Shown here piece after piece: positions 1,688 to 59,261 of a stretch of DNA of 64,000 nucleotides. The position numbers were made by a program, and so were the translations under genes. The notes below the pieces were generated by a model, which saw only the letters and a list, made by a program, of their open reading frames with translations, ran no database searches and had not been told where the DNA came from. The DNA comes from Amoebophrya sp. A120 (lineage: Eukaryota > Protista > Dinoflagellata). Every line of letters begins with the position of its first letter. The stretch's first letter is position 1. Where the stretch lies: NCBI GenBank assembly GCA_905178155.1, contig CAJINV010000001.1:6419860-6483859 (forward strand), given 5' to 3'.

Positions 1688-4264
<2,577 letters not shown>

Positions 4265-31798: not shown

Positions 31799-34700
31799 AT
31801 GACCGCCCCAATTTCTGCTCGTCGTTCCAGCAACATGTTGCTACGCACTTTCGTGAGTGTAGCAGCAACTCAGCTGCTCACCATTGCTCCGACACCCAGC
31901 GCCGCGACGAAATATCACAGGAAAAAGTGTTAACGTTTGCGGAATTTGTGATGCGGCAATGCATTACAAAACGTGCCCAAATTTGTCATGCATAGCATGC
32001 ATACTAGGCTAGATTTGTAATACATGGCTGCAATCTGTGAAAACCGTAAACGTTGACATTTTTTCTTGTGATACGAAAATGATTCCGATCATGCTTCCTG
32101 CAAAGAAGGTGACCTGCCCCGAAATCGAAGTCGGGAATTTTTGCGGTGGGACGAGTCGGGAGCAAACTCCGACCTATGCCGCTTACCAGAGCGACCAAAG
32201 TACAGCCGCATCTCCTTATGGAGGACACAGCCCAGGAGGAAGTTTTGGATTCAATGTCGGCAACATGTCGCCCAACGGCGCAGGAGCTGCAGGAAGTCCG
32301 TCGAACTTTCAGTTTACGGCTGGCGGCGCAGTCAGTCCTTCCTGGCAGATCGGCGTCAAGTCAATGCTCGCGCGCGGCGGCAGCGCGCCTCCCGTAGTGC
32401 AGCGCGGCAGATCGGCGGGCGAGGTCGCGTTTACTGGCGCAAACAGTCAGCAGCAAGGAAGTGCTGCGGCGCGCTCTGGTTCGGTGCCGTTGCTGAATTG
32501 CTGTGGAGGCGGGGGGAACAACAGGGTGTATAAACGCCCGGCTGTGCCAAGTGTTGAACCCACGGCGAGGGCGCAGAGCATGTCAGACATGCCAAAGCAG
32601 ATGCTGCACTACATGAAAGATCAGTACTACAAGACCTCGTTCGGACGCGAGAACCCCATCACAGATTACGTCGATTTTACCAACAGCGTCTTCCTCGGCC
32701 GCGGCACGTCCGCGGTGGTGGTATCCGGCACCCTGAAACGGACCGGCGCACCGGTCGCCGTGAAGCGGTTTCCGAAGCGCAAGGACAAGAACAGTTTTGT
32801 CACGTGGACCGACTACTTGCAGGGAGAGCGCAGGTTCGAGATCGACCGGGCCCGGGACGAGTGCGAGTGGGCGCAAAAGATACAGGAGGTCGCCGGAAAA
32901 ACCAGGTTGTACAAGGGTATTACCTTCACGATTTTTCTGTTTCGTTAATAACAGGTCTTCCAATTGTAAGTACGTCTACTACTTCTCCATGTACTGACCT
33001 TTACAACCTGTACAGCACAAGCTCAAGCATGCACTTACAGATGCGTGCCAGATCTGTGCCCCCTTTGCTTCTAAATGTGATAGAGATAGTGATTATACCA
33101 TGCAGGGTGAAGTTTTGCAGGACGGTGCACTGGTTTGTATCTTTCTTGTTTTCGCTTTCGGTGATTCATAAAAAAATCTATAACCGCGCAAACGATCTTC
33201 AGTTTCAACCTGAAAAGATCCAAAAATCATTTTCCGGGGGCGTCACCCCGGGAAATAAATTTTAGATTTTTTTATGTAAGAATGTAGTGAAAAATCAATT
33301 TGATATGGTGGGACAAACCTTCACCCTTTCCTCATTTTATAAGTGAACCACTACCCTTTGCATTACTATTAATTTTTATAATTATGATAATTGCAATTCT
33401 GCATTCGGTCTGGTGGCAGCTCCATTTCTTCCGCTTTCGTCCTCGTTTTTATCCGTTCACCTTCGTCGATCTCGATAGCAAGAGAAGAAATTGCTATTCA
33501 TTTTGCATCGTTGTGTTCTCGTTTCGTCATCGGTTTTTTTTCGTCACAGCCATCGAATCGTTGAACGGGACGGAGATGGCGCGAAACGGATTGGATGAAG
33601 GCGATGATGGGCAACCGCACCTGAAAGATGCTTGAGGTTTTGTTTTTGATGAGAAAGCACTTATTTTCATTTTGACCGCAAGGCGAATCGAGCCGAAAGA
33701 CACGCACTGAAATCAAATTGAAGCTGAAGACGAAAAGTGAAAAAGAAAATGAAAAACAAAAAGCAAAATGAAAAATAGTACGATGCCGAACAGACGCAAG
33801 GCAGTCACAGGCTGGCCGTATCTGTCGAGCGTGTCGAAAACCTTCACCGCTCCGCCCACATCCGCCGTGTTCTCCATCGTTGTTCATTTTGCTGTGGAAG
33901 CTGCCTGTTGGATTTTTGTAGTCAGCCTTGCTGCACTTGGCCAAAGTGTCGGCTTTTGTTTTGGGTCGGAACTAAGAACCAGCTAGCACCTGTGGTTCAC
34001 ATCTTCGGAGTCTTACTCTTAATCGTTTTTGTTTTTCCACCTTCGTGCTCAGCTCCAAAGTAAAAGTTTAAGGCATTGTCGAGTTTCAATTTTAGCACAG
34101 AGAAAATCTAGAAAGTAGAAGCAGTTTTTTTGTCATCGTCTTATCGAAAGTCAAAGTCTAAGTCGAGAGTTATTCTGGTTTACCTCGTGCTCGTGGGTCG
34201 TGGTCGGAGTGTCGTCAGTTCGTTGTGGGAAAGTAGATCATGAGTTGCTCGCAGGATATCGGGATGGGGTCGCGGCCGTGAGTTGTAGAGTTGTATCGTG
34301 GTCGTGCTTTTTGTTTTCGGTCTTATTTGCTCGCTCGCGTTAGGACCTTGACCTTGAGCTTGACCTTCACCTTGACCTTCGGCCTCGACATCGAACAGCG
34401 CGCACTAGTACGGGCCCAGAATTAGAAATAGCACTACAGTACTAGCAGCAGTCTATCTTTTCTGTTTTTCATTTTCTTCTTCTCACCCTGACAACTGAGG
34501 ATGAGTTTCATACATCCGCGAGTCTAGCTCTAGACTTTTAGTTCGATCACAGATTTTGATTTACGTTTACGTTTAGACCTGCAAAAGCGTTTACAGTTTT
34601 AACCCAAGAAAAAGCAAAGTAAAAACATCATGCCGCCCTCTCCGCAGTATGGCGAGGATGTGCTGTCAACTTCTGGGGCGAGGTTTGCGCATCTCCAGAA

Positions 34701-37700
34701 GCTGCTTGTTTTCTATCATCCTACTGCTCCGCAATCCGCCGTCGAAGTTGGGATCGAAGTTGGGTCGAAGGTCGGGAAGGGACAACCTGGAAAACCAAAA
34801 ACGAAAACGAGCAGAGACGGTGACAAGGCTGCAGGATCAGAAAGCGAAGATGCGGCAGTTCCGAAGAAGGACGCGTTGCGAAAACGGTACGACGTGTGGA
34901 TCAACGAAAGTCCCGCGTTGCGGTGGGAGGACTTCGCTCGGATTCAGTGCAAAAAATTTGGAGCACCGTATTCCCGCGAAGAAGAAAACCAAAGCCAGGG
35001 CGAAGGCCTACTCTCTCAGCGCGTAGGCCCGGATGCGGAACAACAACAATCACAGCAACAAAAACAAGCACCTACTGGCACTGCTGCAAATGTTTCTTCT
35101 TTTGGCGCAGCGATGAGCCCGTCGGTGCAGATCGCCGCCCAATCATCGCGAGACAACTATCTGCGAAAGCTGCAAGACGACCGGCCCAAGGAGCACCTGT
35201 GGTACACTTTGGGAAAAAGCGGCGGCACGGCGCGAGCGCGGAACAAGACGGTGCAAATCACCCGCGACGCGAGCGCGCACAGTCGCCACACGAAGACGAC
35301 CCAAGGTGCCAAACTGCGGGTCGTGCATGGAAAAGCAAAGCCATCTTCTTCAAATACGCGAGCACTGTGTCCGCGACGGAAGAAGCAGGTCGTGGCTCAG
35401 CGGCGACGTGGAGATCTCGGGCCACTGGATGAGGAAGACGACCTGTTGGAAGACGACAACCCGAATCCGCCACCACGAAAAGATCCGGACGAGATGACGG
35501 ACTGTTTGACCGAAATTTCTGAAACGGACACGTCGTGCATCGAGTCCAGCAGTGACGAAGGCGAGGACAACAGCATTCAGACTGATGGGGATACAAGGCT
35601 GCACAACAAGCGGAGCGCTTTGTTTTCCGATGGTGTTCGGATCGCGGCGGGTGGATGGTCGGAAGACAAAGCGAAGAAAACCGCCATCAAAGAAGAAAAA
35701 GCAAAGGTGACCGAGGATGGGAACGATCGCAAAGAGGCTTCGAGAGCGGAGTTGCGGTTTTTCGACATCGCGCGGATCTCCGGCCGTGCCCGCATGATGT
35801 CGCTTCTCGTCTCTACCGGCGTGGTTGCTGATGATCGAGAACCGCGTCCATCCAAAAAAAAAAATGATACAAACGAGTCGCAGGAAACAACAGGCTCCGG
35901 GAAGACAGCAACTTCTTCAACATCTTCATCCGCAAGAGCGAAGCTCGGCTTCGCAGGGCGGGCAGCTGCAATGAAGCTGGATCTGGTGAGCAGTGGGTCT
36001 GACGTCGATGATGAACCTGTGTCGCAGATGGACTTGGACATCGGCGGTTCGCTCGCAGTTATTCCCGAAGATGAGGAGGGCGTCTTTCTCGACCCGAGTA
36101 CCGGGTTGGAGAAAAATGCAGACGGGTTTCGCAGCGTGACGAAGGACCGGATCGCGAAAATGAAAACCAAAGGAGCCAACAACAAGCAGGGCAGCTCGAG
36201 TTCCTCCGGATCCGGTCCACTGAAGCTGGACCCTGTCACGGGGTTGCCGCTGTCTTCCACGGGAAAACGGCCGCGAAGCAACACTATTGAAACGTTGCTA
36301 CCGCCATTAGGTACTTGTGCTTCTATCTTCAGCCTCTTCCTGTTTTTGGATTTGCATTTGATCTACCACTAAGTCGAACTCTAGCAAGCAACGCGCGCAA
36401 GTATCGTCTAAGATCGACGCTGACACTTTTGCGCATGACAGATTGGGTTTTCAACTTTATGCTTTTCGAAAGCGACTTGCTTTCGGTTTTGAATTTGATT
36501 TTGAAATACATAAAGTTGAATCAAACCCATCGAGCTTTAGATTTTGTTTTTTGAAAAGCAAAAATGTGAAGATGAAAACGACATCGGTTTCGACTTTGAC
36601 GCTGCAACGGCTTTTCAAAAACAAAACAAAAACAGAAGAAGACGAACACGAACCCACTAGCAGCCTGTTTGCTGGAAAGAGCGGAGCTGCATCTGCGGGG
36701 CAGGTGCAGACCCGCAGCGTGTTCATGTTGAATCCGGAGAATCTCGCGCGGGCGGATGCAGCGTCGGGCTTAGGCGGTAGCTTCGGGTCTTCTTCATCCT
36801 CGCGAGCTGCGGGGGAAGATCTGCAGGCGACTATGAGCGACATGTTCCGCAATGCCCGGGAAACAACTAGCATCTTCGGCGACGCGGTGACGATGGACGA
36901 CACGGCGTTGAAGTCTGCGGGCCCGACCGGAGAACTGACAAAAAGCGGGTACCAGTATGGGCCGGGGGTCAAAGAAGATCTCGGACAAAAGGAAAAAAGA
37001 CCAAGAATCGCGATCAGGTGCAGTCCCGATGCGACTCCATACGACGAGATCAAAGCCATGAATTGTTTCGCGACTTTGTTCAAGAGCGACTTCCGCGACC
37101 CGATGATCGTGTACAGCCACGACGTCGCTCTGCCGACAATCTCCACGGCATCGGGCGCGGAAAGTTTTCTGCAGGACCTGTACGAGGCTGCTTTCTCGGT
37201 GGGTTTTCCGTTGCCGGGAATGTGGTCGAAACTTTGCAGGCTGGGAGGGAAAATTTTGAAGTTTCGCCCGTCGTTAGTAGTTACTAGTGACAGTGGGTCG
37301 GACGTGAAGAAGGGGGTGAAGATGATGATGCAGTGGTGCGAGGCGCAGCGGAAGTACGACGCGGAGGAAAAAGATGGCGAGCCGCATTGGACAGTGTCGT
37401 GGTTGCAGTGTCAGCTCCACTTGGCGCACATCATAGGCGGAACAATCACCAGCGTAGCGTCGAAGTTGTTCAGTCTGGACTATCGCAAAAGCGTTGCCGC
37501 GGTTTCCAAAACTGTGAACTTGTGGACTGCACCGAGGAGAACAGGGAACGACCGCGGAGGGAGAGGAAAGAAAACAATTGAGGAGCTGAAGAAGGAGTTG
37601 TACGCCGTCGATGCAGAGCAGCAAAAACTCCTGGACGGGATGACAGCGATTGACCGAGAAATCTGGCACAGCGAGCGGATTCAGAGCGACCCGGTCTTGC

Positions 37701-40700
37701 AAGAAAAGCAGGCGAAGCTGGAAGAAAAAGTGGAGAAAAAGAAAAACCCGGTGAAACGAGTGAAGTCCTTCGTCCGCACCCGGTGGCTGAGTATCGGAAA
37801 GTGCATCAAAGGTCTTTGGACACAGCAGGAGGAAATCACAGCACGCATCCTGGACCGGACTGATAAGGATTTGCAGGATAAGAACCGAAAATTTTTGCAG
37901 CGGGCGAAGAAGGCGATGCTGGCGCCGCTGTGGTGGTCGGGTCTGCGGATTCTCCACCTGCTGCTCACCGAAATTGACCGGGTTGCTGGTGTTGTCATGC
38001 ATTCGACCAGCAAGGAGATGGACGGCGCCTCGGTGGAAGCGTTCGCCAAACATCTTCCCAGATGCCACTCCGTCGACTTGTGCCAGCGTGTCGGGGAGTT
38101 TTTGGTTACGCTCGGTGGGCTGGTCTATCGCGGCCTCGAAACAGTCGGTCTTGCGGGTCCTTTAGTCATTTTGTTTTATACATTGGCTAAAGAGCTCGAC
38201 ATCCGCCACCGCCCGCTCCGCTCGTGGCCGTACCGACTTGCGTTTTTATTTTCTGCGGACCAGAGCGAACGGCTGAAGACCATTCAGGACCTGTTGAAGG
38301 ATTGCGAGAGCGAAGCTGGTAGGAAGGACCTGCCGCTGGAGGTTCGGGATTTGTATCGGCTTTTCCATCTGGAGCTGAAAATGGTTGCGGAATCGCTCAA
38401 GAAGAAGAAGAACATCGGGCGGAGCCGGGCCTTCGTTCGAAACTTAGCGCCGATTATTCGGGCGTTTTTGGCTTCGAGCCAAATCGCCGAATCCCTGAGC
38501 TCCACTACCAGCTGGATCAAGCGAGAAGCTGGCGGTTTAATCGGAATGCTTCTTGCTTCTGCGCGTTTGTTTACGCGCCGCGGAGCAGGGCGGGACGTCG
38601 ACTTCGAACAGTATCTCTTCGTTGAGGACAACGCCCGATGCCAGAAAGCAACGATGCAAATCCGAAAGGAGTTGCTAACCCACGGGATACACGGCGCGCC
38701 GCAGATCAGTGATAGGTCGGATCACTTTCTGCGGAACCCAATAAACCCGCAACTCACGCCGGAAGCGATTGTTGCGGATTTTTTTGAAGTTTTGAACCGG
38801 CCGGACTGCCCGGAGGCGCCGAAGTTGGCCACAGGCGACAAAGCAAAAGGGAAAACTAGGGAAAGGCAGCAGTACGGCGCAGCGCCGCTGAGCATGAAAC
38901 TCTTTCAGTTTTCGGTTATGGACATCATCGGCATCCCCAAGTACGACAAAAACAACAACGCGAGAAAAGGAGCGGGCGCATCAAACTACTTCGTGTTGGA
39001 GAAATTGAAGAAAGACGCGGTGCTGTGCGAGGTGAACATCGTGCAAGGCGGGATGAAGGAGAAGGGTCACGAGGTGAGAATGGAAATTGACCTCGACGCC
39101 CAGTGCTGGTTCTCGGACGCTATTGGCGCGCGGAAAGAAGACCATCCCTCCAAGGCAGCAAAAAAAAACTTCAAAAACAAAAACCCGGAACTGCGCCCGG
39201 TGGTACTTGATGGCCAAAACGTGCTGAAGTACTTTCACATCGACACCAAGCAGCGGCGGAAGTACTTCCAGGTTCGACAGACGGAGGAATCTTATGTGGA
39301 GTTTTATTTTCAGCACCGGGTGCGGGCCGATGGAACACCGGATCCAAATCCGACGGCCTATCCGGGAAACGAAGCAGACCAGATTTGGGCTCGGGGTGAG
39401 CTGGTCCGCATGGAGTGGAATGACGCTTGTTTGTCGAAGGAAGTCGAAGAAACCAACATCGAGGAGAAAAAGTTGAAGAAAGCGTTGAAGCAGGACCGGC
39501 TGGATTCTCCCACGCGGCGAACGCGAGAATCAAAGTGGAACCTCGTACCGCTGCGGACCCGCGTCCCCGAGCTTGCAGTGAGTGGTCTAATCGGTCGCGG
39601 ATACGCGATCTACCAAATCGAGTCGAAGACGTGGTGGGGCCGGTTGAAGAATGCAGTTCCTTTTTCTCGGGGTAGTGTGCCAGCTGCTAGCGCCGCAGCT
39701 GTTGCTCCGCCGCAGGTTGCGCCGGACAACAATCCGAAACCCCAAGCGAAGCAAACCAAAAAACAAAAGAAAGCAGCTGCAGCAGGCGACAGTAAATCTG
39801 CAGGCGCGAGTGCGCGCGCGGGCGCACAGGTGGGCGCGGGCGTGCGCGCGCACACGCACACGGGCGTGCAGGCGCACGCAGGTACAGGCGCGGGCGCGCA
39901 GGCAGGCGCGGGTGCACGTGCAGGCGCGGGCGCGCAGGTGGGCGCGCAGGCGGGCGCGCAGGCGCACGTGCACGCGGACCCGCACGTGCACGTGCACGCG
40001 CAGGCGGGTGCGCAGGCGCATGTGCACGCGCGGGCGAGTGCGCGTGCGGACGCGGGCGCGCGCGCGCACGAGGCGGGTGCGAAAATAGTCGGACATGCTG
40101 GTGCGGAATTGCAAGCGGAAGTAGTTTCGGAGAATAAAAGTGGTGGCGACGGAAAAGTGAAGAAAACGCCAAACGGTGGCGTTTATCGGGATCGGTACTT
40201 CGGGGGGAAGACCAGAGAGGCGCTGGTGAAAAACATGATCGAGTACGAAAAGGGGTCGAGCGAGTCGTACATCGCTCCGGCGGGTGAGGATGTGCTAGTT
40301 GCTTCCACGACGCTAACGGCGTACCTGAAGGACAACAAGCTATTTGCAAAAAAACAAAAACGCAATGACAACATCGAAATGAATTCCGACGACGAAAGTA
40401 CCTACGAGTCGTCGGGAACCGACTCGGATTTCGACGAGTCTGACAGTTCTGACGAAGACTAAATGATGGCAGGGTGAGACGCTGAAGGCAGTGCTAGCGC
40501 TGCGCTTCTGATGTAAAACCCGCATGCGCTAGTAGGTCGAGCACTGCTGCAGCGTAGTAGTAAATTTTGTTTGAGCACTCACCTCCTTCTCTTTGTTTTG
40601 AAATTAGTTTCATTTTTCTACCTCGCGTTAAGATCCAGCATGAAGCGAATCTGTCATGCAAAATAAACGAAAACCAAAATTAAAGCGTGTACATTTTTAC

Positions 40701-43700
40701 TTAATGTTGCTTGAAATAGGTGGACAGAAGCTCCATGCAATAAGCTATCCACCGAGCAAAAGACGAGAGCTTCTTATTATTTATCAACGAGGCGCAACTA
40801 GGCGAATTTGCATCGCAAACCAATAAAATTATGCACAATAAATCGCCGAACTCGAGATGCAAAAGTTGACTGCAGTACTGCTAATTGCATCTGTTTTATA
40901 TGTACGTGTATGATTTTTGGCTCTAGAGTTTTGATCTTTTGATAGTTTTAGAATAGGAAAAAGCTAAAAAGTGCATCGAGATTTGTCATGCTAGAGCTAG
41001 AATCTTGAAACAAAATTCCTACCTGTGCGAAGATTTCTGGCGTCGTTTGGAGGTGTTTGAGCTCCGTTTCGCCGCTTTCTCGTCCTGCAGATCGAGGCAG
41101 ATTCGTGTGTTCCAAAGGGCAAAATAGATGAGATCGAGGCTGTCCAAGACTGCAGCGAACCGCTTCTGTTGTTGTTTTTTGATGAATGTGGGTCCTTTAC
41201 CGAGCTGAAAACTGATGACGTTCGACGCCAATCGAAGGCGATTTTGTATGATGAAACGACAACCAAAAAACAATGATTCAAAAACTAAATTGTACGCAAA
41301 GGGAGGTCGATCACTTCCAAAGGGACAGCCAACACATCACGAAGTGGCCAGGATCGCTTTGGAAGTGAAGGGCCTCCCTTTGCGTACAATTTAATTTTTG
41401 AATCATCATTTTTGGGATCGTTTTCCAACGTCCAACTTCGACTCATTTTAAGTTGTAAAGCCATCTCGTTTTGATTTTTTTCATTCTCATTCACCACCAA
41501 AAATATCATAGTAGGAGAAGAAAACCAGGTAGAAAATAAGCTAAGACCAAGTAAGTTGCGACCTATTTTCCATCTCTGTCAACCGGAGTTTCGTGTAAAA
41601 AAAGTTGCGCATCGACGTGCTTTTTGTGTAAAAAAATACTTATTTTCCATTGAATCCACCTCGAAAATGCCGCTTCCGACCGCAGCGGAAGTGAGCGACT
41701 TTGTCTCGTTACTGGATGCGGGAGAGGCTGGAAAGCCCGAGGCCGAGGCCTTTATGGCTCGGCTCTCGAAGCTTCCGTTCGACAGCAAAAATCCGAAATC
41801 CGTCGAAATTCCTCTGACCGAAGTGCACGTGTTGCGGAGCGGGCGCCACCCGCAAAACCGCGTTACAAACCCCGACAACCTGAAAACGTTGAAACACGCG
41901 ATGAAAAACAAGGGCAAAAAAGGAGGATATGAAGGAATGAAAGTCGGTACGTGCAAAATGTTTTTTCGTTTCACATACATTTTTCGTTCAAAAATATTAG
42001 CGCTCACTGTCATCCTATCGCGCAAATGTCTCGTTCAAAACTAGAGCTGCGTTGAGAATTTGTATTGCGCGTTTTGTTTTCTTTGCATCATTTAGATCGA
42101 TAGTCTCTATGTCAGTCCTCATGTAGATGTACTTGCACATGCACAGGATAACTGAAACCACACCCGCACGCAAACAAGAATAAAACTAAAACCCAATCCT
42201 AATACCAGTTCTCTTTGCTGTCGATTACGGCAACACCGGAAAGTGCGAGTACGTGTGCGCCTTCCTGCACGGCGGACATACGATCCTCGCCCTGTACGAA
42301 GAGGGGTGGTTCGATTTCGGGATCAGTGTGATTTTACTCGACCCGGAAGTGGACCAGTACGAGGCTACCAGAGAAACACGCGCTACTGCAAAAAAAAATG
42401 GAAATGCAGCAAGATCAGGAGCACTTCCTTATAGTTTGACTTCGTTATCGTTTTGCACAAAATCAAAATTAAAACTTGTTATGCAAAAAGTGAAAAGGAA
42501 ATCTGTAATGCAAAAGATTTGCCACGCAGAAAATTTGTAATGCAGAAAAAATGAAACGCCATGCAAAGCGTCTTGCTCTTGTGCCATTTCTTTTTGCAGT
42601 AGCAGCTGTTTCATTCCATAGCAGAATTAATCTCGCAGTTCGTGCTCCTGAAAAACGACGAACCCGTCGGAGTGGCTCCGTCCTGGCTGGAAGTCATCAA
42701 GCGCACCGCGCGGGTGCGTTTCCTTCTTTCATTTTAGATGAAGCTCTTAGTCGTTGCAGCTCCAACTCCATTCGTTCCTGCGTCTCCAGCTTCAGCTCGA
42801 TCTTCAAAAGTTATCCTTTCTGATTTCCATTCTGCAATGCAAGTTGTAATGCTCCTTCATGTTTGAGTGTGGTTTTCGTTTTTCATTTACTTTTTCGCGA
42901 TCTAATTTTCGAATGAAAAAATGAAAATCAAAATATCAGAACGACGAAGCCTATGCGGAACACGAGGAAAACCAAAAAGCCAAGGGCAGAGAGCCCCGCC
43001 CCATGGAGGAATGGACCGAGGGCCAGGTGGGAAAAGAGTGGAAGGGGCAGGTGAAGACTTACAAGCAAACGGCGTGCGCAATGGTGAAGAAGGGTTTGTT
43101 ATGCATCGAAAGCGAAAATATAGCACCAGCAGGTGGGGACAAAAGCAAAACCAAAAGTGAAGGGCATGTCTTTTTTTCATCCGCATGACACAAAAATAAA
43201 AAAACCAAGAAAGCAGATGCTTGTCATACTGAGAAATTTTTTGATCTTGGTTGGAGCCTGTCATGCAACTGCAACTGCTAGTGGTGCAATATTTTTGAAA
43301 ATGCATGACCGTGCCACGAATGGACCATGTTCGGAATCGCGATCAGCACCCAAGTGCCGCGGCCGCGGGAGAAGGACGAGCACATGACGCTGTTCAGCTT
43401 CGCGCACGTATTTTTTTACTTCGTTATCGTTTCAAAATCAAAAATCAAATTCAAAAGCAAAAGTAGAGCTACGCTGTGGATTAGCATTACAAAATGAAAA
43501 CATTTTTCAAAAAATTTTTTCGCTCAGAGTCAGACTTTCGCCTCCCGATCCGAATCCATTTCGAAAAAAATAAAAACTAAAAACAGAACAAGCTGATGCG
43601 CGTGGTCATCTACGACGAAGAAACTCCGGTGCGGAGTTTGCGGCTCGATATGCACTTTGCGATTTGGACCACATTGACCTACGCTTGCGGGAAGCCGGAG

Positions 43701-46700
43701 GACCAGGTCAATCTGCAGGAGGATGATTTGAAGCGGCTGCGGAGTCTGATCACATCCAACGTGTCGGCGTTGAAGTTTGACGACTTGAGCGAGCAGGCGA
43801 AGACGAAACGGGACCCCGCGGCGATGGAACAACTGACTCCGATCTCGCGGAAGGAAACCAGAAACAAAATCATCCAGTTGTTCCGCGCAATGAAGACGTT
43901 GAAAAACTTCTACGGTAGTTTGAAGTCTTTGACTTTGGGATGGACAAGGCCGATCCGAAATCGTACGAGTTGAAGTACAACGGAAACTGGATCATCCCGC
44001 GGGACTACACCAAAACGCAGCAAGAAGTTGCGGACGAAAAGTTTCTGCTGAACGAGTTGCCGAAGCTGATGACCCAGATCCACATGTTCACCGCCAACCG
44101 CTGCTCCGCGTTGACCCTCGCCGTGTGTCTGGCGGACAAGGATTTCGACGAAACGCCCAGCCTCGCGAAGTTCATGTACGTCTGCGACCGCGAGGAGAAC
44201 AGCTACTACGTCGAGAAGCTGACCGGTGCGGAACCGAAAGACGCGAAGGACCGGATCCAGAAAGCCGTGGACCAGGACCTGCTCTTGTTGCCGCTGTACG
44301 CGAAGCATGACTGCTACGCTTTGGACGAAACCGTGGATGTGCGATCCAACTGGGGGTCGAAGCCCGGTAAGAAGACTTCCAACAAAAAGGGAAAGAAGGA
44401 CGCGGAAGCGGAGGTGAAAGTGCAGGTACTACTCCTAACTTAGTTGTTTTCTTTTCAGTTCGAATCTGACGGAACATATTTAGTTTTTCACTTTTTTGCT
44501 CGCATAGCAAAATGCTTCTTGATTTGAAAATGAAAATGAGTTCACGTGTGCGCGCGCGCACGTGCGCGTGCGTGCACGTGGGTGCGCGTGCACATGCGTG
44601 CGTGCGTACACGTGCGCGCGCGCCCACCTGCGTGCGTGCGTACACACGCATGCATGCGCGCGCGCGCCCACGTGCGCGTGCATGTGTGCGCGCGCACGTG
44701 TGCACACGCGCGTACATGCGTGCGCGCGCACACATGCACACGTGCGTGTGCACGCGCGCCCGTGCGTGCACGCGCGCGTGCGTGTGCGCGCCCGTGTATG
44801 CGCGCGCACGTGCGCATGCGCGTGTTGGTGTTCGTTTTCATTTTCAAGTCACAAAGAACTGCGCTATGCGAAAAAGAAAAAGTGAAAACCAGAATTGTTC
44901 TGCTTTTGTCTGACTCGTTAATAGTTTTTTAGTTTTAGTTTTACTTTTACACACATTTTTATTTGCAAACTTGTGATGCAAAAAAACAGAACTGAACTTA
45001 CGACGTTGCCATGTGACTACGCATGACAAACATCGAAAAAAAAACCAGGTCAAAGAAGGCCAGGGTGCCGAAGAGGAGGAAACCGAGGATCAGAAAAAGT
45101 CCCGCGAAAAACGTGAGAACGTGCTGAAGAGCGATCCGAAGAAGGCCAGCCAGGAGTTCTTGAAGCAGAAGCCCTTCCGATCCCCGCTGTGGTGCTCCGC
45201 CGTGCCCAGTGAGTTCGCGTCGCAGACGGAGGGGGAGATGCAGAGGAACGCCGAACGTGTCCCCCGCCTGCGTATCCTCGTGAAACCCGACGCAAACATG
45301 TACAAACCCCCGACCAACGACGGAGAGGAGTTTCAGCTGGACACGCTGTTTTACTATCCCCAGAAGAAGAAGCTCGGCGGTGACTGGGACTTTCAGGACG
45401 ACCTCACCCACACGTTGTCGCTCTCGTAAGATTTGACTTTTTGAAAAAAATTGACATTGACTTTTTTCACAGCATCACAAACGCATAAAAAGCACAAACA
45501 GATCTGAAATGGCACCGCGTGACAGATGCAACATGACACCAACACTCTTTTCAATCCATTTCGATGCGAGCACTATTAGCATCTTCATTGCCGCTCCACC
45601 GCATGACAAACGAGAATCACAAACAATGCATCACAGCAGGCGCGTGAACTATTTTTGGAAACCGGCCGACAACAATAAAGTCGACCGGTTGACCATGATC
45701 TCGTGGAAGACCTGCGAAGTCCCCTTCTGGGGAAAGGATGGGAAGAAGACGTCGATTAAGTTTCAAGTCCCGGTGGAGGCGTCGGTGAAAAGCAGTGGAA
45801 ACCCAAAGAAGGCGAAGCAGAGCAACATCTTGTGCTGAACCCCAAGAGACTACGGGTATGGAGTCGGAGACGGACGGATACGAAAATCAAAATTAATAAA
45901 CAGGTAAGCGCGCCTACTCATACACCTACCTCTACTTTAGATTTAGTTTAAGTCTTTGGCTTCTTGTTCTTTTAGTTTTAGAAACCACGCGAAGCTTTGA
46001 AACATCTTGCGCGCGACTTCTCGTCGCGTTCAAAAATTTTTGGTTTTGTAGCGGCTTCTTTTCGGTCGTGAAGTAGACACTTAGACTCAAGCCCCGTTGT
46101 TAGTCAAATCCCAATCCCAAAAGCAGCACCTACTCCCACTGACTCCCAGTCCCACACCATCACAAATTGAAAAAAATACGCAGGTAGTCGCAACAGCACT
46201 ACGGCCATGAAGGTACACAGCAACGGTCTTGCTCTTCGTGGTTTCAAGACTCTTCTTCTCGACATGAGCATCAAGAAAAGCTACCACAAAAACGAACTGC
46301 TCTTCCACGACGAATGCAAGTGATCGACTATTTTTCCTACCTGCTGCGGCTGCGCGGTGTTGGTCAAGTTCTTCTTTTTGGAAGCAAAGGCGCGGAGGGG
46401 CGATGGCGGTTGATCGGTGGGAAATGCCACGCAACCTAGGAGGAGAAGTTTCCAACTTTCACAAAGCTGCAGCCTACCGGTTTACTTTCGATCTAGATCT
46501 AGAAGCAAAAAAAAACATGAAGTTCTTTTGTCTTGCACAGTGACAATTCAGATTGCGTTTCGATTTTTTACGTTCGCGTTAGATTTCAGTTTAAAGCTTG
46601 AATCTCAGGAAGCAAAGCCTTCAAAGTAAAAACTACTTACGACTGGTCGAGCCCCAGATCGCCGACCTAGATTGTGACTTACGTTTACGCTTACCGCTAC

Positions 46701-49700
46701 TGTCAGTGTAGCTCGACTTCATCATTAGTTTTAACTTTTAAGTTTGTGTCTGTCACCGACTCAGTAATAGTCTTCAGCTACAGTTTAAATTTCAAAATCT
46801 AAATCATCATCCTCATCAACAAACAGCTTGTTTGTCAGCAGCGGCATGCTTGGCCTTTTGGTCAAAGCGTGGCCGTGTGCTTTTTCGCTTTATTGAAAAA
46901 ACAAAAAACAAAGCTACAACCTAATCTTCGTTTCCACCTCCGGGTGTAGTCATGCGACGGCTGCTACTTGCCAATCATCAGGCCCTCGGGTCGTACTAGT
47001 ACAAGTACTAGATCTAGAACTAATTCTAAGACAGGCAAAACCAAAATTAAAATTTTCAGGAAGGCGCTAATTTTACCCCAAGCGGAAGAGGAAAGGTTGA
47101 ACAAAATCAAAAAGCGAGCGCGAGAAAGAAATCCGCTGCACCTCTTCCAGTATCTTCCACTACTAGAACTAGGAGTTTCGAACTCGATGCAACTTGTCGA
47201 CTTTCGCTTTCATTCTTTGCGACGGCAAGATTGAAGTAGAGGCGCATCTTCACCAATTGCGATGCGGATGCTTTTTTCTTCGACGAGGTGGAGGCTCGAA
47301 GATTTTGACTATGAGACTCTCCTTCTCAACCTTTAAATTTTGAATGTCGACCTGTACCTGTAGACTCTCGAAACCGAAAAAACAAGAGCCAAAAAATGGG
47401 CCGCGTTCTCACGATGCAATGAGAACGACGCGAAGATGTTCGCGCTCGTGATCGCCTGGCAGTTTCTGAAAAAAGCTGAAACTTAGAGGGAGATGGATGG
47501 ATGAAGAATGTGAAATCGCAAAGGAGATCAGACCGTGTCTAGATCCAAAAAAAAGAAAGCCGAAGTTCCGCCAAAGACTGGAAGTTGATCGCCTGGATCC
47601 AAAGCAGGCGACCGCTCAGCTCCGAGGGGTCTAGAAGATCAAGCGAAAAAAAAAAAACGTGGATCGCCTGCTTCCACCTACAAGCTTGGAGTTTTTGGAT
47701 CTCCTTGCACTGTGCGTTTTGAATTTTTCCTCATAGTTTTTTCTTTTTCATTTCAAACTGTCAGGGACCAATGTACTTCTACTTGTGCCTGTAGGTCGTT
47801 ATCGCTTTCGTCTGAGTTTACTCTAGCTTCTCGCTTCCCTCCACAGCAAAGAAAGTAGTTGCCCTTCCGTCTGAGTTTACTTTTTTTCTTTTCCCTCGAA
47901 CCTGATCTCGGGTAGCGTAACTTCGATTCCGATCTCTACGTTTACTTTCTTTTTTTGCAAAAGCAAAAAAACAACATCAAAATGTCGGACCAGAAAGCGA
48001 AGCTGGTGAAGCTGGGCCCGAAGTGTGCCGTCGATGATGACGAGGATGGTCCGCCGCCGGGAGGGGTGCGATTTAGAACCATACACGGGGCAACACGGGC
48101 GGAAGTGGAAGAATTACACAAAGACGAAATCAACAAATGGGTCCCCGCGAAGAACGGACACATGAAGTGCATTATGTTCTTGGATGATGTTGACGAAGAT
48201 GTCCCCGGATGCACCCAGGCGGAGATGTGGGTACTAATGCTGGCGCTTTTGTTTTTTTGTTTTGCATTGAGAGGGATTTTGCGTTTTCGAGTCGAAGTCT
48301 AAATTTCAAACCTAGCAGTGGGATCAAACCGACAAGGAGGAGAACTTCGTGGACAACCTTTTTGGGATGTTACGGGGCCAGACCAAGCGGAGAACCGGGC
48401 CAGAACAAGTGGAAGTGGATGCGTCCGAGATGACGAAACAGGAGCAGCCGGAAATCATCAACCTGATTTTCAACATGGCGGAATCTGATGATAACGCGGC
48501 CTGGGCGAAGGCTTTTTTGGTGGACGAGGCGACCGGTGGTGCTTACGGATCAGCTTCTTCTTCTTCTTCGACTGGTTCCGGAATTACTCCTGGTGGAGCT
48601 TCTTCTTCTTCGCGCCCGAACAACGAACAGATGGAAGAAAAGACGAACGACGACGATGCGAGCGAGGAGATGGAGGTGGAGGCGGAGAGCACCCCGACCA
48701 CCAAGGCCGGGAAAAAGAAGAAGAAGCAAAAGACCAAGAAGTAGACATCTTTCACCTGTTCAGCGCGTCGAGCTCGAACGGAAAAGCGTCGGAATCGGCA
48801 CAACAAGTGCTTCTTCTACATCTTCAGCTTCTAACTCTACTGCTAAAACAAGAAGCTCAGACTTTTGATGACGCGAATGGCAACGAGAAACAAGCACAAG
48901 TAGATGAAAAAAAAACGACAACGAAATGCAGCCGGAGCTGTGAAATTTTTTATGGGTGTGTTCGGCGCTCCCTTCGGTGTCTTTCTCCTTCGTTGATGGG
49001 TGTCATTGGTCTGACGATGGTTCATCGCGTCCTACGACATTGCCCCGACCACTCTGACCTTCCACTGAAGCCGGCGCAAAAATGGAATGCAACAGTCGTC
49101 AGGACCGACGTCGTTATATAAATTCAGGGGCGTGGGCATCCTTCTAAACACCCACTTTTCGCATGCCAAAGCTCAACATCAAGATCAAAATCGTATTGAG
49201 AAAAAGTGGCAAATCGGTTCAAAAAAAATAGAAGTGAAGACGTTCACGAACAAAGATAATCATGCCAATTTTCATAGTTATAAAAATTGATAGTATTTCA
49301 AAGGGTAGTGGTTCACTTATAAAATGAGGAAAGCTGAAGGTTTGTCCCACCATACAATTTGACCTATTCCAGTAGGACATTCGTACAAATTTAAATTATG
49401 TGTGTGTGTGTGTGTGTGTGTGTGGTCGTCGATGCGCATATTCCAATAACCGCCAGCGTGCTGTATAATGTTATGCTCGACGCTAGTACGGAGGATCGAT
49501 GCTTAAACCAAAATTTCACTGGCTGCGCCCATCACGCACGACTGCACTTTTCAAAGCACCACTGGACTCATCTTCCTCACAAGGTATTGGACGGAACTTC
49601 GCGCATTGTTTGCGAATGAACATCGGCGAGGTGGAGATGCGACCGCACACCGATCCGGACACCGGTTTGCTGAATCCGCAGTGGCGGGAACTGGGCCATT

Positions 49701-52013
49701 TCGAGATGCACGCTTTGTCCCCCCTTCCGAAAAACGTCGACGACGAGCTGTATCTGATCTACCAGTTGGCGGGTACCCCCGTGGTCGACTACCTCCGCCA
49801 GCAAACGTACCAGAGCAATAGCAGCGGGCTCGGGTTGGTGCGCGAGCCGGAGATCTATGCATTGGAAATTTTCCGTATGTGTACAAAATGCATGACAAAT
49901 TTCCCTAACATGGAGTGTCCAACTTGTCATGCTGAGGACCAAGATTGAAGAGAAGGAAAGTTTTGTCATACATAGCATTTGTACGTCGTGTACGGGAAAT
50001 TTACTGTGGATAAGACCATCCCGATGATGCTGCAACAGCTGGTCTTCGCGGTATCGTTCCTTCGCGAGGAGGTAAAAGCGGTGCATCATGACTTGAAAGC
50101 CGAAAACGTTCTGTGGGACGATATGCATTGCAAAAGCATCGCACTAGTTTGATTTGCATGACAAACCTTTGGGAGAACGAAAACGGAATTTCTCATGCAG
50201 ATTCAATTAAGAGCCTGGTGATCTGTCATGCAAGATTGCGAGTACTACAAGTGCAATACTTTTGCCCAGGATAGAAAAGACCGAGAAGCGAATCGTCCTG
50301 ATCGACTTCGGCTCCATGTCCGCACTTCTGTCCGAGGACGAAGTCCGCGAACACCAGCAAGCCTGCTCGATCCGCATGGTGCCGCGCACCGCGGAGGACG
50401 ACGCGTTGGACGAGGATTTGATGAACGCCGGGGGCTTTGGCGACGGGGGGATCATGTCCAGTTGCGATTGCTGCACATCAACCAGCGGAGTTGGTGGTGC
50501 TTCTTCTAAACGCGAAGGACAGCATGGATTTCGCAACATGGAGATGGACCTCGACGAGGTGCGGTCCATCAGCTACCAGCAACAGCAAGAACAGTCCTCC
50601 CTCTTCTGCTGCCCCACGACCGGCAGCTCTTGCTGCGGCCCCTCGGCGAAAGATAGGTTTATCATCGATGGGCAGGATGTGGGGAGAACACACAAGTCGG
50701 CCATGGTTGTGAGGGACCACGGACGGCGGCTCGATCGAACCGACGGCGACAGAAAACGGCAAATTATCCGTGGCCTCGGGCACACCCCGCACTCGATTCA
50801 GCAGTGGACCCCCGGATTCGCGCCGATAGAAAAGGAGGAAGGAACCAGTTTGCAGGCGATGCAGACCGCGAGCTCCGTGGACATTTTCGCGTTGGCGACA
50901 CTGATGGGGCAAATTTTACTGGACGGAACGAACCTGATCATGGCACACTACATGCAATTCGACGGGTTGACCAGGAGCGCGACGGCAAGGTTAGCTGCTG
51001 GCGGGGAGAACGCGCCTGCCCGATCCTCTACCTCCGCGTCTACTTTTTCCGGCGCGCGGGTGACGCCACAGGGTCAGCCGGTACAACGGGGCCAGCCACG
51101 CGAACTTATCATTCAGGACCAACAGCAGCAGCCGGAGGTGCAAGTCATCAACTTGACACCCTGCTGCCCGAAAGACAGCCAAGGATTTTGCAGTCCATTG
51201 TGCTGCATGACGCCAACCATGACGATCGACTGCACGGAGTGCTGTGGAATGTCTGCAGAGAAGCAGCTCGAGCTGTACGGAAACGGCAACAAACCGGTGG
51301 GGTCGCGGTTCCTGGCGGACGGACACAAGACCAAAAAACCGTACAAAATCTTCTGGGCCGAACTGTTCGAAGATATCGCGGACTCGGATATAGGTCTCAA
51401 GAAGCTGTACATCACGCCGCGCGTGAAGACTCGACAGGGCGCCGGTCCGCACATCCCGCCGGGAAAAAGCAACGCCGTACTGCAGGCATTGGTGGGGACG
51501 CTGCCGTCACAGTGGACGGATGCCTTCTTCATCTTTTGGCCGCGGTTGTTTTTGAGTCACGAAACGCGCGTGAACGCGTTCACGATCATGGCGATGTCGG
51601 TCTTCCAGGAGATCGATCCAAATACCGGACGCTGGCGAGCAGTAGCACAGGGCGCCGCGGGAAGTTCTTCAACACCCGCCGGTGGTGCTGCTGCTGGGCA
51701 GTTGTTCACAAAAGTTGTTGGGGACCGACGCAGCGGCCCCATGGGCGGTGCAAGTGGACCTGTGCAGCAGGGTTTTCTCGGCGCAGCGGCCGCGGCTGGT
51801 GGAATGAACAGTCGTGGCGCTGTTCAGGTACAAGAAATCGATCCGCGGGACCCGAACCGCGGGGCGAAGTACCAGCAATTTATCATGACCATGGAAAACG
51901 ATCCCAATGGTCCCGTAGGAAACTGCAACTGGCTAACGCGCTTGCTCTACAGCTGTTGTTACTCAACCGAAGCAACAGGAAACACGCAGGTGCAGTGGCA
52001 ACAGAATCAGTGA
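31799..52013 (+). CDS. Protein kinase with signal-peptide-like N-terminus, split by a 16.7-kb transposon-containing intron; exons ~31799-31912, 32079-32916, 49584-49852, 50015-50121, 50279-52013
   Basis: N-lobe LGRGTSAVV, VAVK and alphaC E at ~32690-32880; C-lobe HHDLKAEN, IDFG, TPGFAPIE, VDIFALA after 49584; GT(32917)-AG(49583) phase-1 join reads RLYKG-IGRNF. Confidence 0.8.
31913..32073. mobile_element. IR introner in kinase gene; TSD CGAAA; ends related to 12707-12916
   Basis: TATCACAGGAAAAAGTGTTAACGTTTGCGG vs right revcomp TATCACAAGAAAAAATGTCAACGTTTACGG; CGAAA at 31908-31912 and 32074-32078; removal gives SAATK-MIP. Confidence 0.92.
33304..33392 (+). repeat. Left TIR of giant hAT element
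   Basis: TATGGTGGGACAAACCTTCACCCTTTCCTCATTTTATAAGTGAACCACTACCCTTTG... matches revcomp of 49267-49354 with few differences. Confidence 0.95.
34630..40462 (+). CDS. hAT-like DDE transposase, ~1,835 aa; exons 34630-36310 and 36636-40462
   Basis: Ordered motifs CSPDAT (D1), VTSDSGSDVKKG (D2), CQLHLAH (CxxH), VRTRWLS (TRW.S), ASSQIAESLSS (catalytic E region); phase-1 GT-AG intron 36311-36635 fuses the 580-aa and 1339-aa ORFs. Confidence 0.8.
39805..40082 (+). repeat. GC-rich, largely purine/pyrimidine-alternating repeat read in frame as an AGAQ/AHVH tract of the transposase
   Basis: GCGCGAGTGCGCGCGCGGGCGCACAGGTGGGCGCG... with no stop or frameshift. Confidence 0.85.
41667..45838 (+). CDS. Multi-exon cargo gene of the giant element with ParB/Srx-like N-terminus; apparent frameshift near 43915 (possible pseudogene)
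   Basis: Exons ~41667-41946, 42209-42363, 42639-42713, 42940-~43092, ~43312-43407, 43587-44425, 45049-45425, 45640-45838; IPLTEVHV...QNR...LKHAM...AFLHGGHTILAL pattern recalls the ParB-N core. Confidence 0.55.
44460..44918. repeat. Foldback element in cargo-gene intron: imperfect ~80-bp IRs around a ~280-bp alternating (GC/GT/AC) tract
   Basis: TTTTCACTTTTTTGCTCGCATAGC...TTGAAAATGAAAA vs TTTTCATTTTCAAG...GCTATGCGAAAAAGAAAAAGTGAAAA; core 44543-44824 is CGTGTGCGCGCGCGCACGTG... Confidence 0.8.
47982..48744 (+). CDS. Small acidic cargo protein with C-terminal poly-Lys (NLS-like) tail; exons 47982-48230 and 48316-48744
   Basis: Phase-0 GT-AG intron 48231-48315 joins QAEMW-QWDQTDKEENFVDNL; ends GKKKKKQKTKK*. 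Confidence 0.65.
49267..49354 (-). repeat. Right TIR of giant hAT element
   Basis: ...CAAAGGGTAGTGGTTCACTTATAAAATGAGGAAAGCTGAAGGTTTGTCCCACCATA followed by TSD CAATTTGA. Confidence 0.95.
49399..49424. repeat. (TG)n microsatellite
   Basis: Uninterrupted TG dinucleotide run in the kinase intron. Confidence 0.9.
49856..50012. mobile_element. IR introner in kinase gene; degenerate TSD AGATC/AGACC
   Basis: TATGCATTGGAAATTTTCCGTA vs right revcomp TATCCACAGTAAATTTCCCGTA; removal joins VREPE-(T/I)IPMMLQQ. Confidence 0.8.
50122..50273. mobile_element. IR introner between kinase HxDLKxxN and DFG motifs; degenerate TSD
   Basis: TATGCATTGCAAAAGCATCGCACT vs right revcomp TATCCTGGGCAAAAGTATTGCACT; removal joins ENVLW to TEKRIVLIDFG. 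Confidence 0.78.
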
Positions 52014-53078
52014 AGGTGGGGAAAGAGATACCGATACCATCTGAGAGGTGGAGGTGGTGGGCGGCTAGGATGGAATAAAGACCAAGCTACAGCTAGCTCC
52101 TCCTACTTAATGAATATGTATTTCAACGACCAATTTTTGTATTCATGTTCTTACTTGTTTTGGTCTACCAAATAAATGTTGAAGAAGTCTGGTTTATTTT
52201 CAGTCTGCAATCTGAATCAGTTGTTTCTCTTTCTGACGTTCACGTTGCGTCTGGTGACTTGTTTTTCACGACCTGGCGACGTTTCTCTTGAGAAAATATA
52301 TGCACCGTGCGCAGTGCATGTGCAGTGTCAATGAGAGCGGAGCGCGCAGAAATTTTCCTAATGATTAGTGTGTGTTTTTACACTCGCCAAACTTCCTACT
52401 TGCTATAGTCTTTTCTTTTTGCGAAAACTCAAACCTATGCCGGTGAACGAGAATAAAGTTGTCTGTGTTGAAGTTGTCTAGAGGTAAAAAGAAGAAATTG
52501 AAATTGGCCTAGTTGACGAGGTCCCCTACCGCACATGAACAAAGTAGTTTCGGCTTTTCGGTCAAAAATAAATTGCCGCAGATTGGTGCTACTCCGATGC
52601 ACATGCAGCCTTGTGTCTCCCTGCTCTCCACAAGGCGTCATTGGAATTCGGTAGTTTTTGTCGGGCGGCCTCTCATCTAACTACGAACCGACTAGCAGGA
52701 AAGTAAGGATCTTGATCTTGCAGGAGATTATGATGGCGAAAGAAGTAGCTGATAATTGAAACTGCAGCTTCTCGCATGCGTAGGCTTCGAGCGAAACATC
52801 ATCATGAGAGCGAAGGTTATACCTCTGTCTTCATAGCAGACGAGTGAGCATTATGAGCATCTCCTTTACTGCTTATGGATAGATGAGTATGGCACCCATC
52901 AGGTCCTCTATTGGAACGAAGTCGCTGGCCAACGCAGCATTGTGTTGGTTGATGCGGCCGCAATCTCCCGTAACTAGAACAATACCAAGCCACTGAACTA
53001 CCACATTGACATTCTACCTTCAGACACGAGTCGTAAACAGTGATAGGAACGCAAAAAGCACACATACCCTACACCATC

Positions 53079-54190
53079 ATGCTGCTCCAGTCGGGCGCCT
53101 CTAAAGAGGCACTGCGCACGCTGATCGTGGGAGGCCGGGGTGGTATCGGGACGGCGTATGGAAAGTTCTTCAACCCTGCGAACACGGTTGTCACCGCGTC
53201 AACACCGAAAAAAGTCGAGGAGCTGAAGGCCAAAAAGTTTGCCAACGCGCTTCAGTTGGACTTCAACCAAGAAGCACACTTCAAGAACTTGTCAACGGAG
53301 CTGAAAAACATGGATTTCGTTCCCGACCTTGTCATCAACTGCACGGGCGTACTCGGCCTGCCACACACGGACCCAGCGAAAGCGGAAAAAGGCGAGATCG
53401 TTCGGCCAGAATCTTCCGTGAAAAAGATAACGCCCGACATTCTGCAGAGGACGTTTCTCACCAACGTCTTTGCCAACGCATTGTTGCTGCGGGAACTCGC
53501 CTCGGGCATTTGGAGCAAAGCGCCGAAGGACCACCCGCTTCTTTTCGCGTCCTACTCCGCCCGGGTGGGCAGTATTGCGGCAAACGAATTGGGTGGGTGG
53601 TACAGTTACCGGGCCTCTATCAAATGCAAATATGTCTGGGTCTGGAAGAATGCGCGATTTGTCATGCTGCTTTTCCATGACCCATGGCATGGGGTTTGGA
53701 ATGCAGGACCTAGCATGACAGTTTCTGTGCGATCTCTCTCATGCCTATCCTGCATGAGAAAGTCCCTCCCGGCTTGGTCAAAACTGAACGACTTTTGGTA
53801 ATCATGCAACACAGATTTTTGCATGCTGCAGATTTAGCATGAAAAGTTGCAATGTTCCAGACCCAGACATTTTTACATTTGATAGCCTCGAAAGCGGCGC
53901 AAAACCAGTTGATCAAGACATCCAGCTTAGAGTTCAAGCGGTCACACCCGAAAGCGTGCTTGCTTGTCGTGCACCCGGGGACCGTGGAGACGACTTTGAG
54001 CACGCCTTTTGTTGGAAACGCGAAGAAGCAAACGCTCCAGTCAGAGGTCCTGGATGACGTGGAGAAGCTGTCGGGCTACTTTACACCCGACGTCGCCGTG
54101 CAACTGATGTGGAATAATGTTTTGAGCAAGGTCGGGCCGGAAGACACAGGGAAATTTCTCGACTACGCGGGCCAAGAAATTCCGTGGTAG
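53079..54190 (+). CDS. Short-chain dehydrogenase/reductase (C-factor/CsgA-like); exons 53079-53617 and 53890-54190
   Basis: GGRGGIG, INCTG, SARVGSI, GGWYSYRA|SKAA (YxxxK split by introner), VHPGTVET, GKFLDYAGQEIPW. Confidence 0.92.
53618..53884. mobile_element. IR introner inside the SDR catalytic YxxxK motif; TSD GCCTC
   Basis: TATCAAATGCAAATATGTCTGGGTCTGGAA vs right revcomp TATCAAATGTAAAAATGTCTGGGTCTGGAA; GCCTC at 53613-53617 and 53885-53889. Confidence 0.95.
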
Positions 54191-59108: not shown

Positions 59109-59261
59109 TTGTGGAAGTGCGAAGGCAAACTCGTTGTGCTACGAGTTTGGCCTCTGAAGGAATATCAATATGAATATTTCAATCGATAAGTTGTACAGCG
59201 CTATAATAAAATATGTTGACAGTTCCAGGTTGACAGTCGCTGGAACATGACGAAAACCTTA

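Follow-up and report, generated by a model that had tools for sequence, protein, structure and literature searches.

Can a gene still be read as one unit when a 16-kb transposon lies between its first two coding exons? This question is raised by a protein kinase gene in a 64,000-nt (64-kb) stretch of the genome of the dinoflagellate Amoebophrya sp. A120 (assembly GCA_905178155.1, contig CAJINV010000001.1, positions 6,419,860–6,483,859 of the forward strand). We call this whole stretch the window, and all positions below are counted from its first letter. Between exons 1 and 2 of the kinase gene lies an intron that contains an inverted-repeat DNA transposon (Table 1), and the original prediction, made from the letters alone, had left two outcomes: splicing by the host across the element, or a recent disruption of the kinase. 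We conclude, with a probability of roughly 0.85, that intron 1 of the kinase gene holds the transposon, that transcripts join position 32916 to position 49584, and that the gene is read across the element.

This conclusion is carried by contig runs of two kinds. Runs X1 and X2 are DNA-like and contain 0.98 of the words, introns included. Runs X3–X6, which derive from one sample and from another study than X1, are RNA-like and contain 0.77–0.85 of the words, a share expected from intron loss. In all four of these RNA-like runs we found a contig that joins 32915/6 to 49583/4, skipping exactly 16,667 nt between GT and AG, with 30, 30, 30 and 255 letters on the shorter side of the joint. One of them, in X6, is a single contig of 3,140 nt that comprises 32453–32915, 49583–49854, 50017–50120 and 50278–52200, and thus contains all four exons. 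The exon pieces of the joined contigs differ from the window by zero letters, and the direct step from 32916 to 49584 in all four means that a micro-exon proposed at 33106–33132 on the forward strand is absent from them. X1 covers 30 of the 30 bins of the stretch at about 45–85x, and its DNA contigs contain neither the joined form (32916/49584) nor an empty-site joint (33303 to 49363). A joint placed at GT..AG, together with exon-only cover, fits complementary DNA, because transposon-free DNA would keep an intron of 608 nt. An X1 contig (32300–33355) spans the left end of the element from the flank, and RNA-like contigs in X3 (49134–49612) and X4 (49188–49612) span its right end, so that, between them, two studies outside the assembly contain both ends of the insertion. 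Three raw-read RNA runs with the same species label (X10–X12) placed 0 reads and are no test of splicing.

The sequence at the two borders agrees with this joint. Exon 1 ends in ...TAC AAG G/GTATTACC at 32916/32917, and the acceptor reads ...CTCACAAG/GTATTGG at 49583/49584; joining the two in phase 1 gives a GGT (Gly) codon and leaves the frame open, while read-through at the donor meets a stop after 10 further codons. A repeat, ACAAGG(G)TATT, flanks the intron at its boundaries (donor side ACAAGGGTATT, acceptor side ACAAGGTATT), and 6 nt of the joint fit either side. This repeat is the “identically repeated intron boundary” known for dinoflagellate introns, as described in the excerpts of Mendez et al. 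(2015; PMC5032977) on which we draw. We rejected intron 1 as a hairpin intron, since the 200 nt at either end of it pair no better than shuffled sequence (z = +0.8); with its own ends unpaired and those of introns 2 and 3 paired, intron 1 is a conventional intron. A (TG)n microsatellite lies in the intron at 49399–49424, past the right duplication copy and ahead of the acceptor.

Assembled from the exon coordinates of the RNA-like contigs, the kinase coding sequence has 2,949 nt, or 982 codons plus a stop, with no internal stop. The motifs follow one another in canonical order in the spliced translation: Gly-rich loop (GRGTSA, aa 207), β3 Lys (VAVK, aa 226), HxDxKxxN (HHDLKAEN, aa 393), DFG (aa 414) and APE (APIE, aa 586), with VDIFA at aa 605. 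Their spacing is unusual, with 164 aa from Lys to HxD and an activation-segment insert that places DFG and APE about 170 aa apart. Exon 1 encodes a low-complexity N-terminus followed by the Gly-loop, VAVK and αC, and exon 2 looks, by inspection, like β4–β5 and the hinge, its LYLIYQLAGTPVVDYL stretch being read as β5/hinge. When exons were scored singly rather than as the spliced protein, exon 1 matched positions 3–41 of the Pfam Pkinase profile (PF00069; E = 0.00095, 19.1 bits) and exon 3 matched positions 99–132/103–132 (E = 0.0018–0.0045, 16.8–18.2 bits), both below threshold and collinear on the profile. Because of the motif order and these collinear sub-threshold matches we regard the gene, on its sequence, as a divergent protein kinase; it is predicted to be active and of the non-RD (non-arginine-aspartate) type, with the Lys, the HxD Asp, the Asn and the DFG all kept. 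This identity is weakened by the fact that no single exon piece attains the Pkinase gathering score (16–19 versus 31.7 bits), that exons 2 and 4 have no Pfam match at all, and that exon 4 had no homologue at E ≤ 0.001 in a search that scored 7,989 candidates of 317–1010 aa.

The original prediction had let the half with the Gly-loop, VAVK and αC end at 32916 and had proposed a phase-1 GT-AG join with a continuous frame, and on both points the sequence agrees. Its division of the kinase into N-lobe and C-lobe calls for correction. Intron 1 does split the kinase, but the break falls at aa 279/280, after αC and within the N-lobe; likewise, the next exon does start at 49584, but the HxDLKxxN and DFG motifs that were expected there lie past two further introns without GT-AG borders, in exons 3 and 4.

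That the inserted sequence is a transposon, as had been proposed, is borne out by its ends. The terminal inverted repeats are about 90 nt long and about 93% alike with one indel, the 8-bp target-site duplication is perfect, and the 20-nt terminus of the element occurs exactly 2 times in the window versus 0 expected (100 shuffles). Intron 1 minus the element and one duplication copy (16,667 − 16,051 − 8) leaves 608 nt, which matches the earlier estimate of about 608 nt. The element would thus have entered an intron of 608 nt that already existed, at a point 387 nt past the donor and 229 nt short of the acceptor; at these distances it would have brought no splice site of its own and left both existing ones untouched. 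RNA polymerase would then read on through this element of the same orientation, and the spliceosome would match the original donor with an acceptor 16.7 kb away. We also considered that the element itself might be an introner, and rejected this because its left repeat starts 387 nt after the donor and its right repeat ends 229 nt before the acceptor. Three same-strand nested genes had been predicted inside it; the shared strand was confirmed, but codon-usage scoring against the host open reading frames (ORFs) of the window yielded more than three coding-like ORFs.

Table 1. Features of the window, in order of position (those without coordinates last)
Feature	Position	Strand	Remarks
Malic enzyme ORF	2075–2983	+	
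Hairpin element	12707–12916		at a break between + strand ORFs
VPS13-like ORF	16333–25629	+	3,099 aa
Hairpin element	26090–26355		at a break between + strand ORFs
Kinase exon 1	32079–32916	+	coding part, from first in-frame ATG; ends in phase 1; contigs reach 32915/6, then jump
Intron 1	32917–49583	+	16,667 nt; GT..AG; joint in RNA-like contigs
Left target-site duplication copy	33296–33303		CAATTTGA, 8 bp
Inverted-repeat DNA transposon	33304–49354	+	16,051 bp; coding-like ORFs all on + strand
Left terminal inverted repeat	33304–33393	+	starts TATGGTGGGACAAACC
589-aa ORF	34603–36369	+	Lys/Ser/Glu-rich, coding-like; no family match
1,366-aa ORF	36362–40459	+	predicted hAT-like DDE transposase; core 36950–38581
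189-aa ORF	41475–42041	+	coding-like; no family match
Coding-like ORF group	43581–43970, 43919–44440, 44977–45426, 45461–45835	+	no family match
Two adjoining coding-like ORFs	47916–48299, 48316–48741 (acidic)	+	no family match
Right terminal inverted repeat	49266–49354	-	
Right target-site duplication copy	49355–49362		CAATTTGA, 8 bp, identical to left copy
Kinase exon 2	49584–49854	+	carries LYLIYQLAGTPVVDYL stretch; joints in RNA-like contigs
Intron 2	49855–50016	+	162 nt; CT..AC; end-to-end hairpin; joint in X3–X6
Kinase exon 3	50017–50120	+	catalytic loop HHDLKAEN; Pfam Pkinase piece
Intron 3	50121–50277	+	157 nt; AT..AA; hairpin; joint in X3–X6
Kinase exon 4	50278–52013	+	DFG, APIE, VDIFA, long C-terminal tail, stop codon
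Hairpin element	53618–53884		at a break between + strand ORFs
UCH ubiquitin hydrolase ORF	56223–59105	+	
Class-3 lipase ORF		+	
Short-chain dehydrogenase ORF		+	

Several observations speak against splicing across the element. Unspliced contigs cross the acceptor in three runs (49134–49612 at a depth of 5.35, 49188–49612 at 6.88 and 49493–49612 at 3.5), and these could represent either incomplete processing or a second transcript start in the right end of the element. The joined contigs stem without exception from one sample of a single study, whose RNA status is only a guess of the tool; contigs show neither strand nor abundance, and an mRNA is itself silent on whether it came from an element-bearing or an element-free allele. 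We note that the acceptor-crossing contigs start inside the element (49134, 49188) or in its 3′ flank (49493) and run unspliced into exon 2, and a truncated kinase transcript from an element-driven start could be their source. RNA-like contigs cover almost none of the inside of the element (one 154-nt contig at 40636–40789 and low-complexity matches of 19–25 nt), which is no evidence that the element's genes are silent.

One way to account for the joined contigs without splicing over 16.7 kb is that the mRNA stems from an element-free allele or paralogue with a 608-nt intron, the window copy being null or poorly processed. A spliced mRNA bears no mark of which intron was removed, the unspliced acceptor-crossing contigs in three runs point in the same direction, and X1 contains variant contigs, 95–99% alike over parts of the element, which imply that something is present in at least two copies or alleles. 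We nevertheless hold this to be very unlikely, given that X1 yields neither an empty-site joint nor a second version of the flanks, and that its contigs 32300–33355 and 49984–52200 contain no letter differing from the window. The X1 depth of the flanks (about 46–48) also equals the base depth in the element (about 43–50), though contigs may miss rare variants and this is therefore no proof. The other outcome foreseen by the original prediction, a recent disruption that left two separate genes or a dying one, could draw on the length of intron 1, which far exceeds the 162 nt of intron 2 and the 157 nt of intron 3, on its same-strand ORFs, on the early stop in donor read-through, and on the contigs that start at 49134–49493 and enter exon 2 unspliced. 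It is contradicted by the exact joint in four of four RNA-like runs, by the one contig with four exons, and by a spliced frame that is open over 982 codons with its catalytic motifs all kept. Disruption could be revived only if the joined contigs were DNA of a retrocopy, of which X1 shows none, and we give it almost no credence. Splicing of the kinase transcript across the resident element thus stands as our reading of the locus.

What kind of element the host splices across is indicated by its largest ORF. This ORF of 1,366 aa is uninterrupted and is predicted to encode the element's own DDE transposase, with candidate catalytic residues at 37028 (D), 37289 (D), 37409/37418 (C..H), 37787 (W) and 38489 (E) and a C-terminal Ala/Gly/Gln/Arg-rich repeat at about 39800–40080. 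Searched exhaustively with HMMER, 1.84 billion representatives yielded only 5 relatives of its residues 171–1050 (E = 1e-55 to 3.5e-6, 29–33% identity); three are EukProt proteins of Amoebophrya sp. AT5.2, the other two come from assemblies, and in tblastn the five matched the window only at 36908–39646. Counting at each motif column only the sequences that have residues there, we found PDATP conserved in 4 of 5 (the Asp itself in 5 of 5), (S/T)DxGSD in 5 of 5, CxxH in 6 of 6, TRW in 5 of 6 and (A/V/T)E(S/A) in 5 of 5. From the second Asp to the Glu there is a predicted all-helical insert of about 400 residues with the TRW inside it. The resulting order of Asp, Asp, CxxH, a long helical insert with Trp, and then Glu is what we take to be the signature of hAT transposases.

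Structural comparison hinted at the same family. An initial AlphaFold2 model of 880 aa reached a predicted local distance difference test (pLDDT) score of 43, and Foldseek gave nothing usable with it. With a model of the core, the best six rows of VIA-align were all Hermes transposase (Z = 10.8, 10.2, 9.9, 9.6, 8.6 and 7.8), and the first unrelated row followed at 6.7; the root-mean-square deviation was 6.4 over 238 aligned residues in the row with Z = 10.8 and 3.4 over 161 in that with Z = 10.2. Model residue 113 was aligned with residue 247 of the Hermes chain and residues 153/154 with 264/265, which we take to be the second Asp and the CxxH, set against D248 and C265 of Hermes; the structural alignments to Hermes did not reach the Glu region. 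Atlas returned weak hAT/DUF659/ZBED leads (0.82–0.87). With an 8-bp target-site duplication and terminal inverted repeats, the element also has features of hAT transposon ends, and from the Hermes rows and the duplication we judge it probable that it is hAT-like.

A good deal can be held against this assignment. The ORF has no Pfam match, and no Pfam family accounts for any of its five relatives; for the hAT families in particular (e.g., the PF05699 dimerisation domain and the BED finger), searches of the ORF and the five gave nothing at E values up to 10. Neither the ORF nor its alignment had a real match among PDB sequences. The AlphaFold2 core model is of low confidence (pLDDT 58), Foldseek with this model returned no row at E ≤ 0.001 (Hermes stood at an E of about 1), and by the tool's own caution a VIA-align Z under about 13 may reflect an arrangement common in helical models. 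The inverted repeats are long, at about 90 nt, and their TATGG start and the duplication do not fit the hAT consensus (YARNG and nTnnnnAn). We treat the missing Pfam match as a limit of profile reach, and call the element hAT-like rather than a proven member. Another DDE superfamily that makes 8-bp duplications (Mutator-like or P-like), or a gene island bounded by inverted repeats whose large ORF is no transposase, would account for the lack of Pfam and PDB sequence matches and for the long repeats, and the low model confidence leaves room for either. Long inverted repeats are more usual in Mutator-like elements, and the CxxH motif is common to several superfamilies. The top VIA-align rows, six in number and all of them Hermes, exceed the first unrelated row by 1 to 4 Z units and are in register at the second Asp and the CxxH, which makes these alternatives unlikely; the predicted all-helical insert, as found in hAT, with its TRW, and the 8-bp duplication, which fits hAT, also speak against them. 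The hAT-like element shares with Hermes, Ac and hobo (structures 2bw3, 4d1q, 6dww and 8sjd) the 8-bp duplication, the terminal inverted repeats and a putative D-D-CxxH-W-E order, and differs from them in the low identity of its ORF to Hermes in the structural alignments (about 10–13%), in its size of 16 kb, in several extra ORFs, and in its 90-nt repeats.

These extra ORFs offered few leads. Pfam searches with seven other ORFs of the element and with the 589-aa ORF found nothing. The latter may be an upstream part of the transposase gene; it gave a marginal 27-aa match (E = 0.004) to the N-terminus of the relative P0001, in pieces that are not collinear. The ORF group at 43581–45835 is broken by a GC-rich palindromic stretch (44470–44930). 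Hairpin or palindromic stretches stand at breaks between the element's coding-like ORFs (41236–41443, 42373–42612 and 44492–44879), and the element's own genes may therefore carry hairpin introns; these stretches are without the TAT..ATA ends of the host introners. Two GC-rich (GCGC/ACGC/GCAG) low-complexity repeats, at 39800–40080 and 44540–44820, are about 75% complementary to each other, and the second forms a palindromic copy-like stretch between cargo ORFs.

Among the 229 placed X1 contigs, 105 are 95–99% alike. At 35752–35803 (50.8 of a depth of 91.9), 38105–38116 and 38714–38768, variant and identical contigs occur together, each at about single-copy depth. At least parts of the element therefore exist in a second copy or allele that has diverged slightly. 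Given its intact ORF, its perfect duplication and this second copy or allele with 95–99% similarity, the element was probably mobile until recently. A bolder proposal, which we put forward tentatively and at less than even odds, is that it is an intact, recently mobile and autonomous member of a deeply divergent hAT-like lineage that is invisible to Pfam and seen only in Amoebophrya-type parasites, its genes riding on the kinase pre-mRNA. If this is true, cis-splicing over 16.7 kb would compete with the processing of the nested messages, and the element would be an autonomous DNA transposon of a kind that domain-based surveys of such genomes miss.

Introns 2 and 3 of the kinase gene are of an altogether different kind. 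Their ends pair with each other (z = −5.6 for intron 2 and −3.3 for intron 3), and intron 2 has a minimum free energy of −46.5 (z = −3.3). Both share the terminal motif TATGCATTG...GGATA, and each consists of 1 nt, a TATGCATTG...GGATA hairpin element and 4 nt, in the same register to the terminal helix; the 5-mers on the two sides repeat each other imperfectly (AGATC/AGACC for intron 2 and GACGA/GAAAA for intron 3). An intron composed of element plus 5 nt suggests that the cut is positioned relative to the hairpin and takes out one of the two copies of a 5-nt duplication. X1 depth rises to 1117 in the intron 2 bin versus about 46 in the flanks, and the termini of intron 2 belong to a high-copy repeat family; blastn found no further copies of introns 2 and 3 in the window beyond words of 12–16 nt. 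With their non-GT-AG borders, paired ends, short flanking repeats and many copies, the two introns are of the kind of the Amoebophrya introners described in the excerpts we used of Farhat et al. (2021; PMC7789003) and Gozashti et al. (2025; PMC12130899), the latter of which derive introners in one Amoebophrya strain from diverse terminal inverted repeat DNA transposons. Unlike these introners, the 16-kb element sits in an older intron and is flanked by an 8-bp duplication rather than by the 5-nt repeats of hairpin introns.

Three further hairpin elements of 210–267 nt lie elsewhere in the window (Table 1). They start with TATC, end with GATA or CATA, and have perfect 5-nt flanking repeats (GTCAG, TGGTC and GCCTC, respectively); two of the three have the motif AATGTCTGGGT(C/G)TGGAAGA in common. 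From these features they are likely to be additional introns of the introner type. The termini of the 16-kb element share only their first four letters, TATG, with the two kinase introns and only TAT with the other three hairpin elements. That the element's transposase mobilises the hairpin introns was considered and rejected, on account of their 5-nt repeats and TAT..ATA ends as against its 8 bp.

Every long ORF of the window is on the forward strand. This one-directional arrangement, the hairpin introns without GT-AG and the repeated intron families resemble what is described for the genomes of Amoebophrya A25 and A120 in the excerpted text of Farhat et al. (2021; PMC7789003). Together with the Amoebophrya sp. 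AT5.2 relatives of the large ORF, they suggest a parasitic (syndinian) dinoflagellate as the source. Rfam returned 0 matches for the window as a whole. A 260-nt foldback at 59261–59520, shortly downstream of the UCH ORF, has 96-nt arms that are 98% complementary and TTA on both sides; in sequence it resembles a young miniature inverted-repeat element from another family. If the TTA is a 3-nt duplication, it would fit PIF/Harbinger.

Transposons that lie in introns and are removed with them, leaving the host protein unchanged, are common in eukaryotes, among them animals and plants, and same-strand nested genes are tolerated. The spliced intron described here is an instance of this ordinary tolerance, though of a size that is unusual in a compact genome. 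It differs from the animal and plant cases in that the host lineage has mostly very short introns and that U1 small nuclear RNA (snRNA) was not detected, according to the excerpts of Farhat et al. (2021; PMC7789003). The closest parallel comes from another dinoflagellate, Crypthecodinium cohnii, in whose ADH-C gene, as given in the excerpts of Mendez et al. (2015; PMC5032977), an intron reaches 26,372 nt through one 26,073-bp insertion that is absent from sister copies, and introns have identically repeated boundaries of 2–11 nt. Both cases concern a dinoflagellate intron whose length (16,667 nt here) is due to a single insertion (16,051 bp here) and which has a boundary repeat. Unlike what those excerpts describe for ADH-C, the kinase insertion is delimited as a transposon by inverted repeats, an 8-bp duplication and a transposase-like ORF, and its host genome is compact, with no tandem array. 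A literature search found no description of the 16-kb element or of the kinase intron, although the supplements of the Amoebophrya papers may list them.

No principle is overturned by these findings, as spliced intronic transposons are common and a 26-kb dinoflagellate case is in print (PMC5032977, as excerpted). What they add is modest, namely the size of an intron in a compact genome and a transposase family missed by standard libraries. For annotation, the excerpts of Farhat et al. (2021; PMC7789003) indicate that the intron search in Amoebophrya A25 and A120 was capped at 10 kb and that introns of 40–1000 nt were analysed; an intron of 16.7 kb would escape a survey with such a limit, and annotation could mistake the kinase for two genes. 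For mobile elements, the same excerpts mention two putative transposases found by domain search in one strain and none in the other, and one complete element of a transposase family unseen by domain libraries gives a start for counting DNA transposons. For the biology of the organism, a lineage without detectable U1 snRNA and with mostly hairpin introns would nonetheless be able to join a conventional donor to an acceptor 16.7 kb away, with several same-strand ORFs in between.

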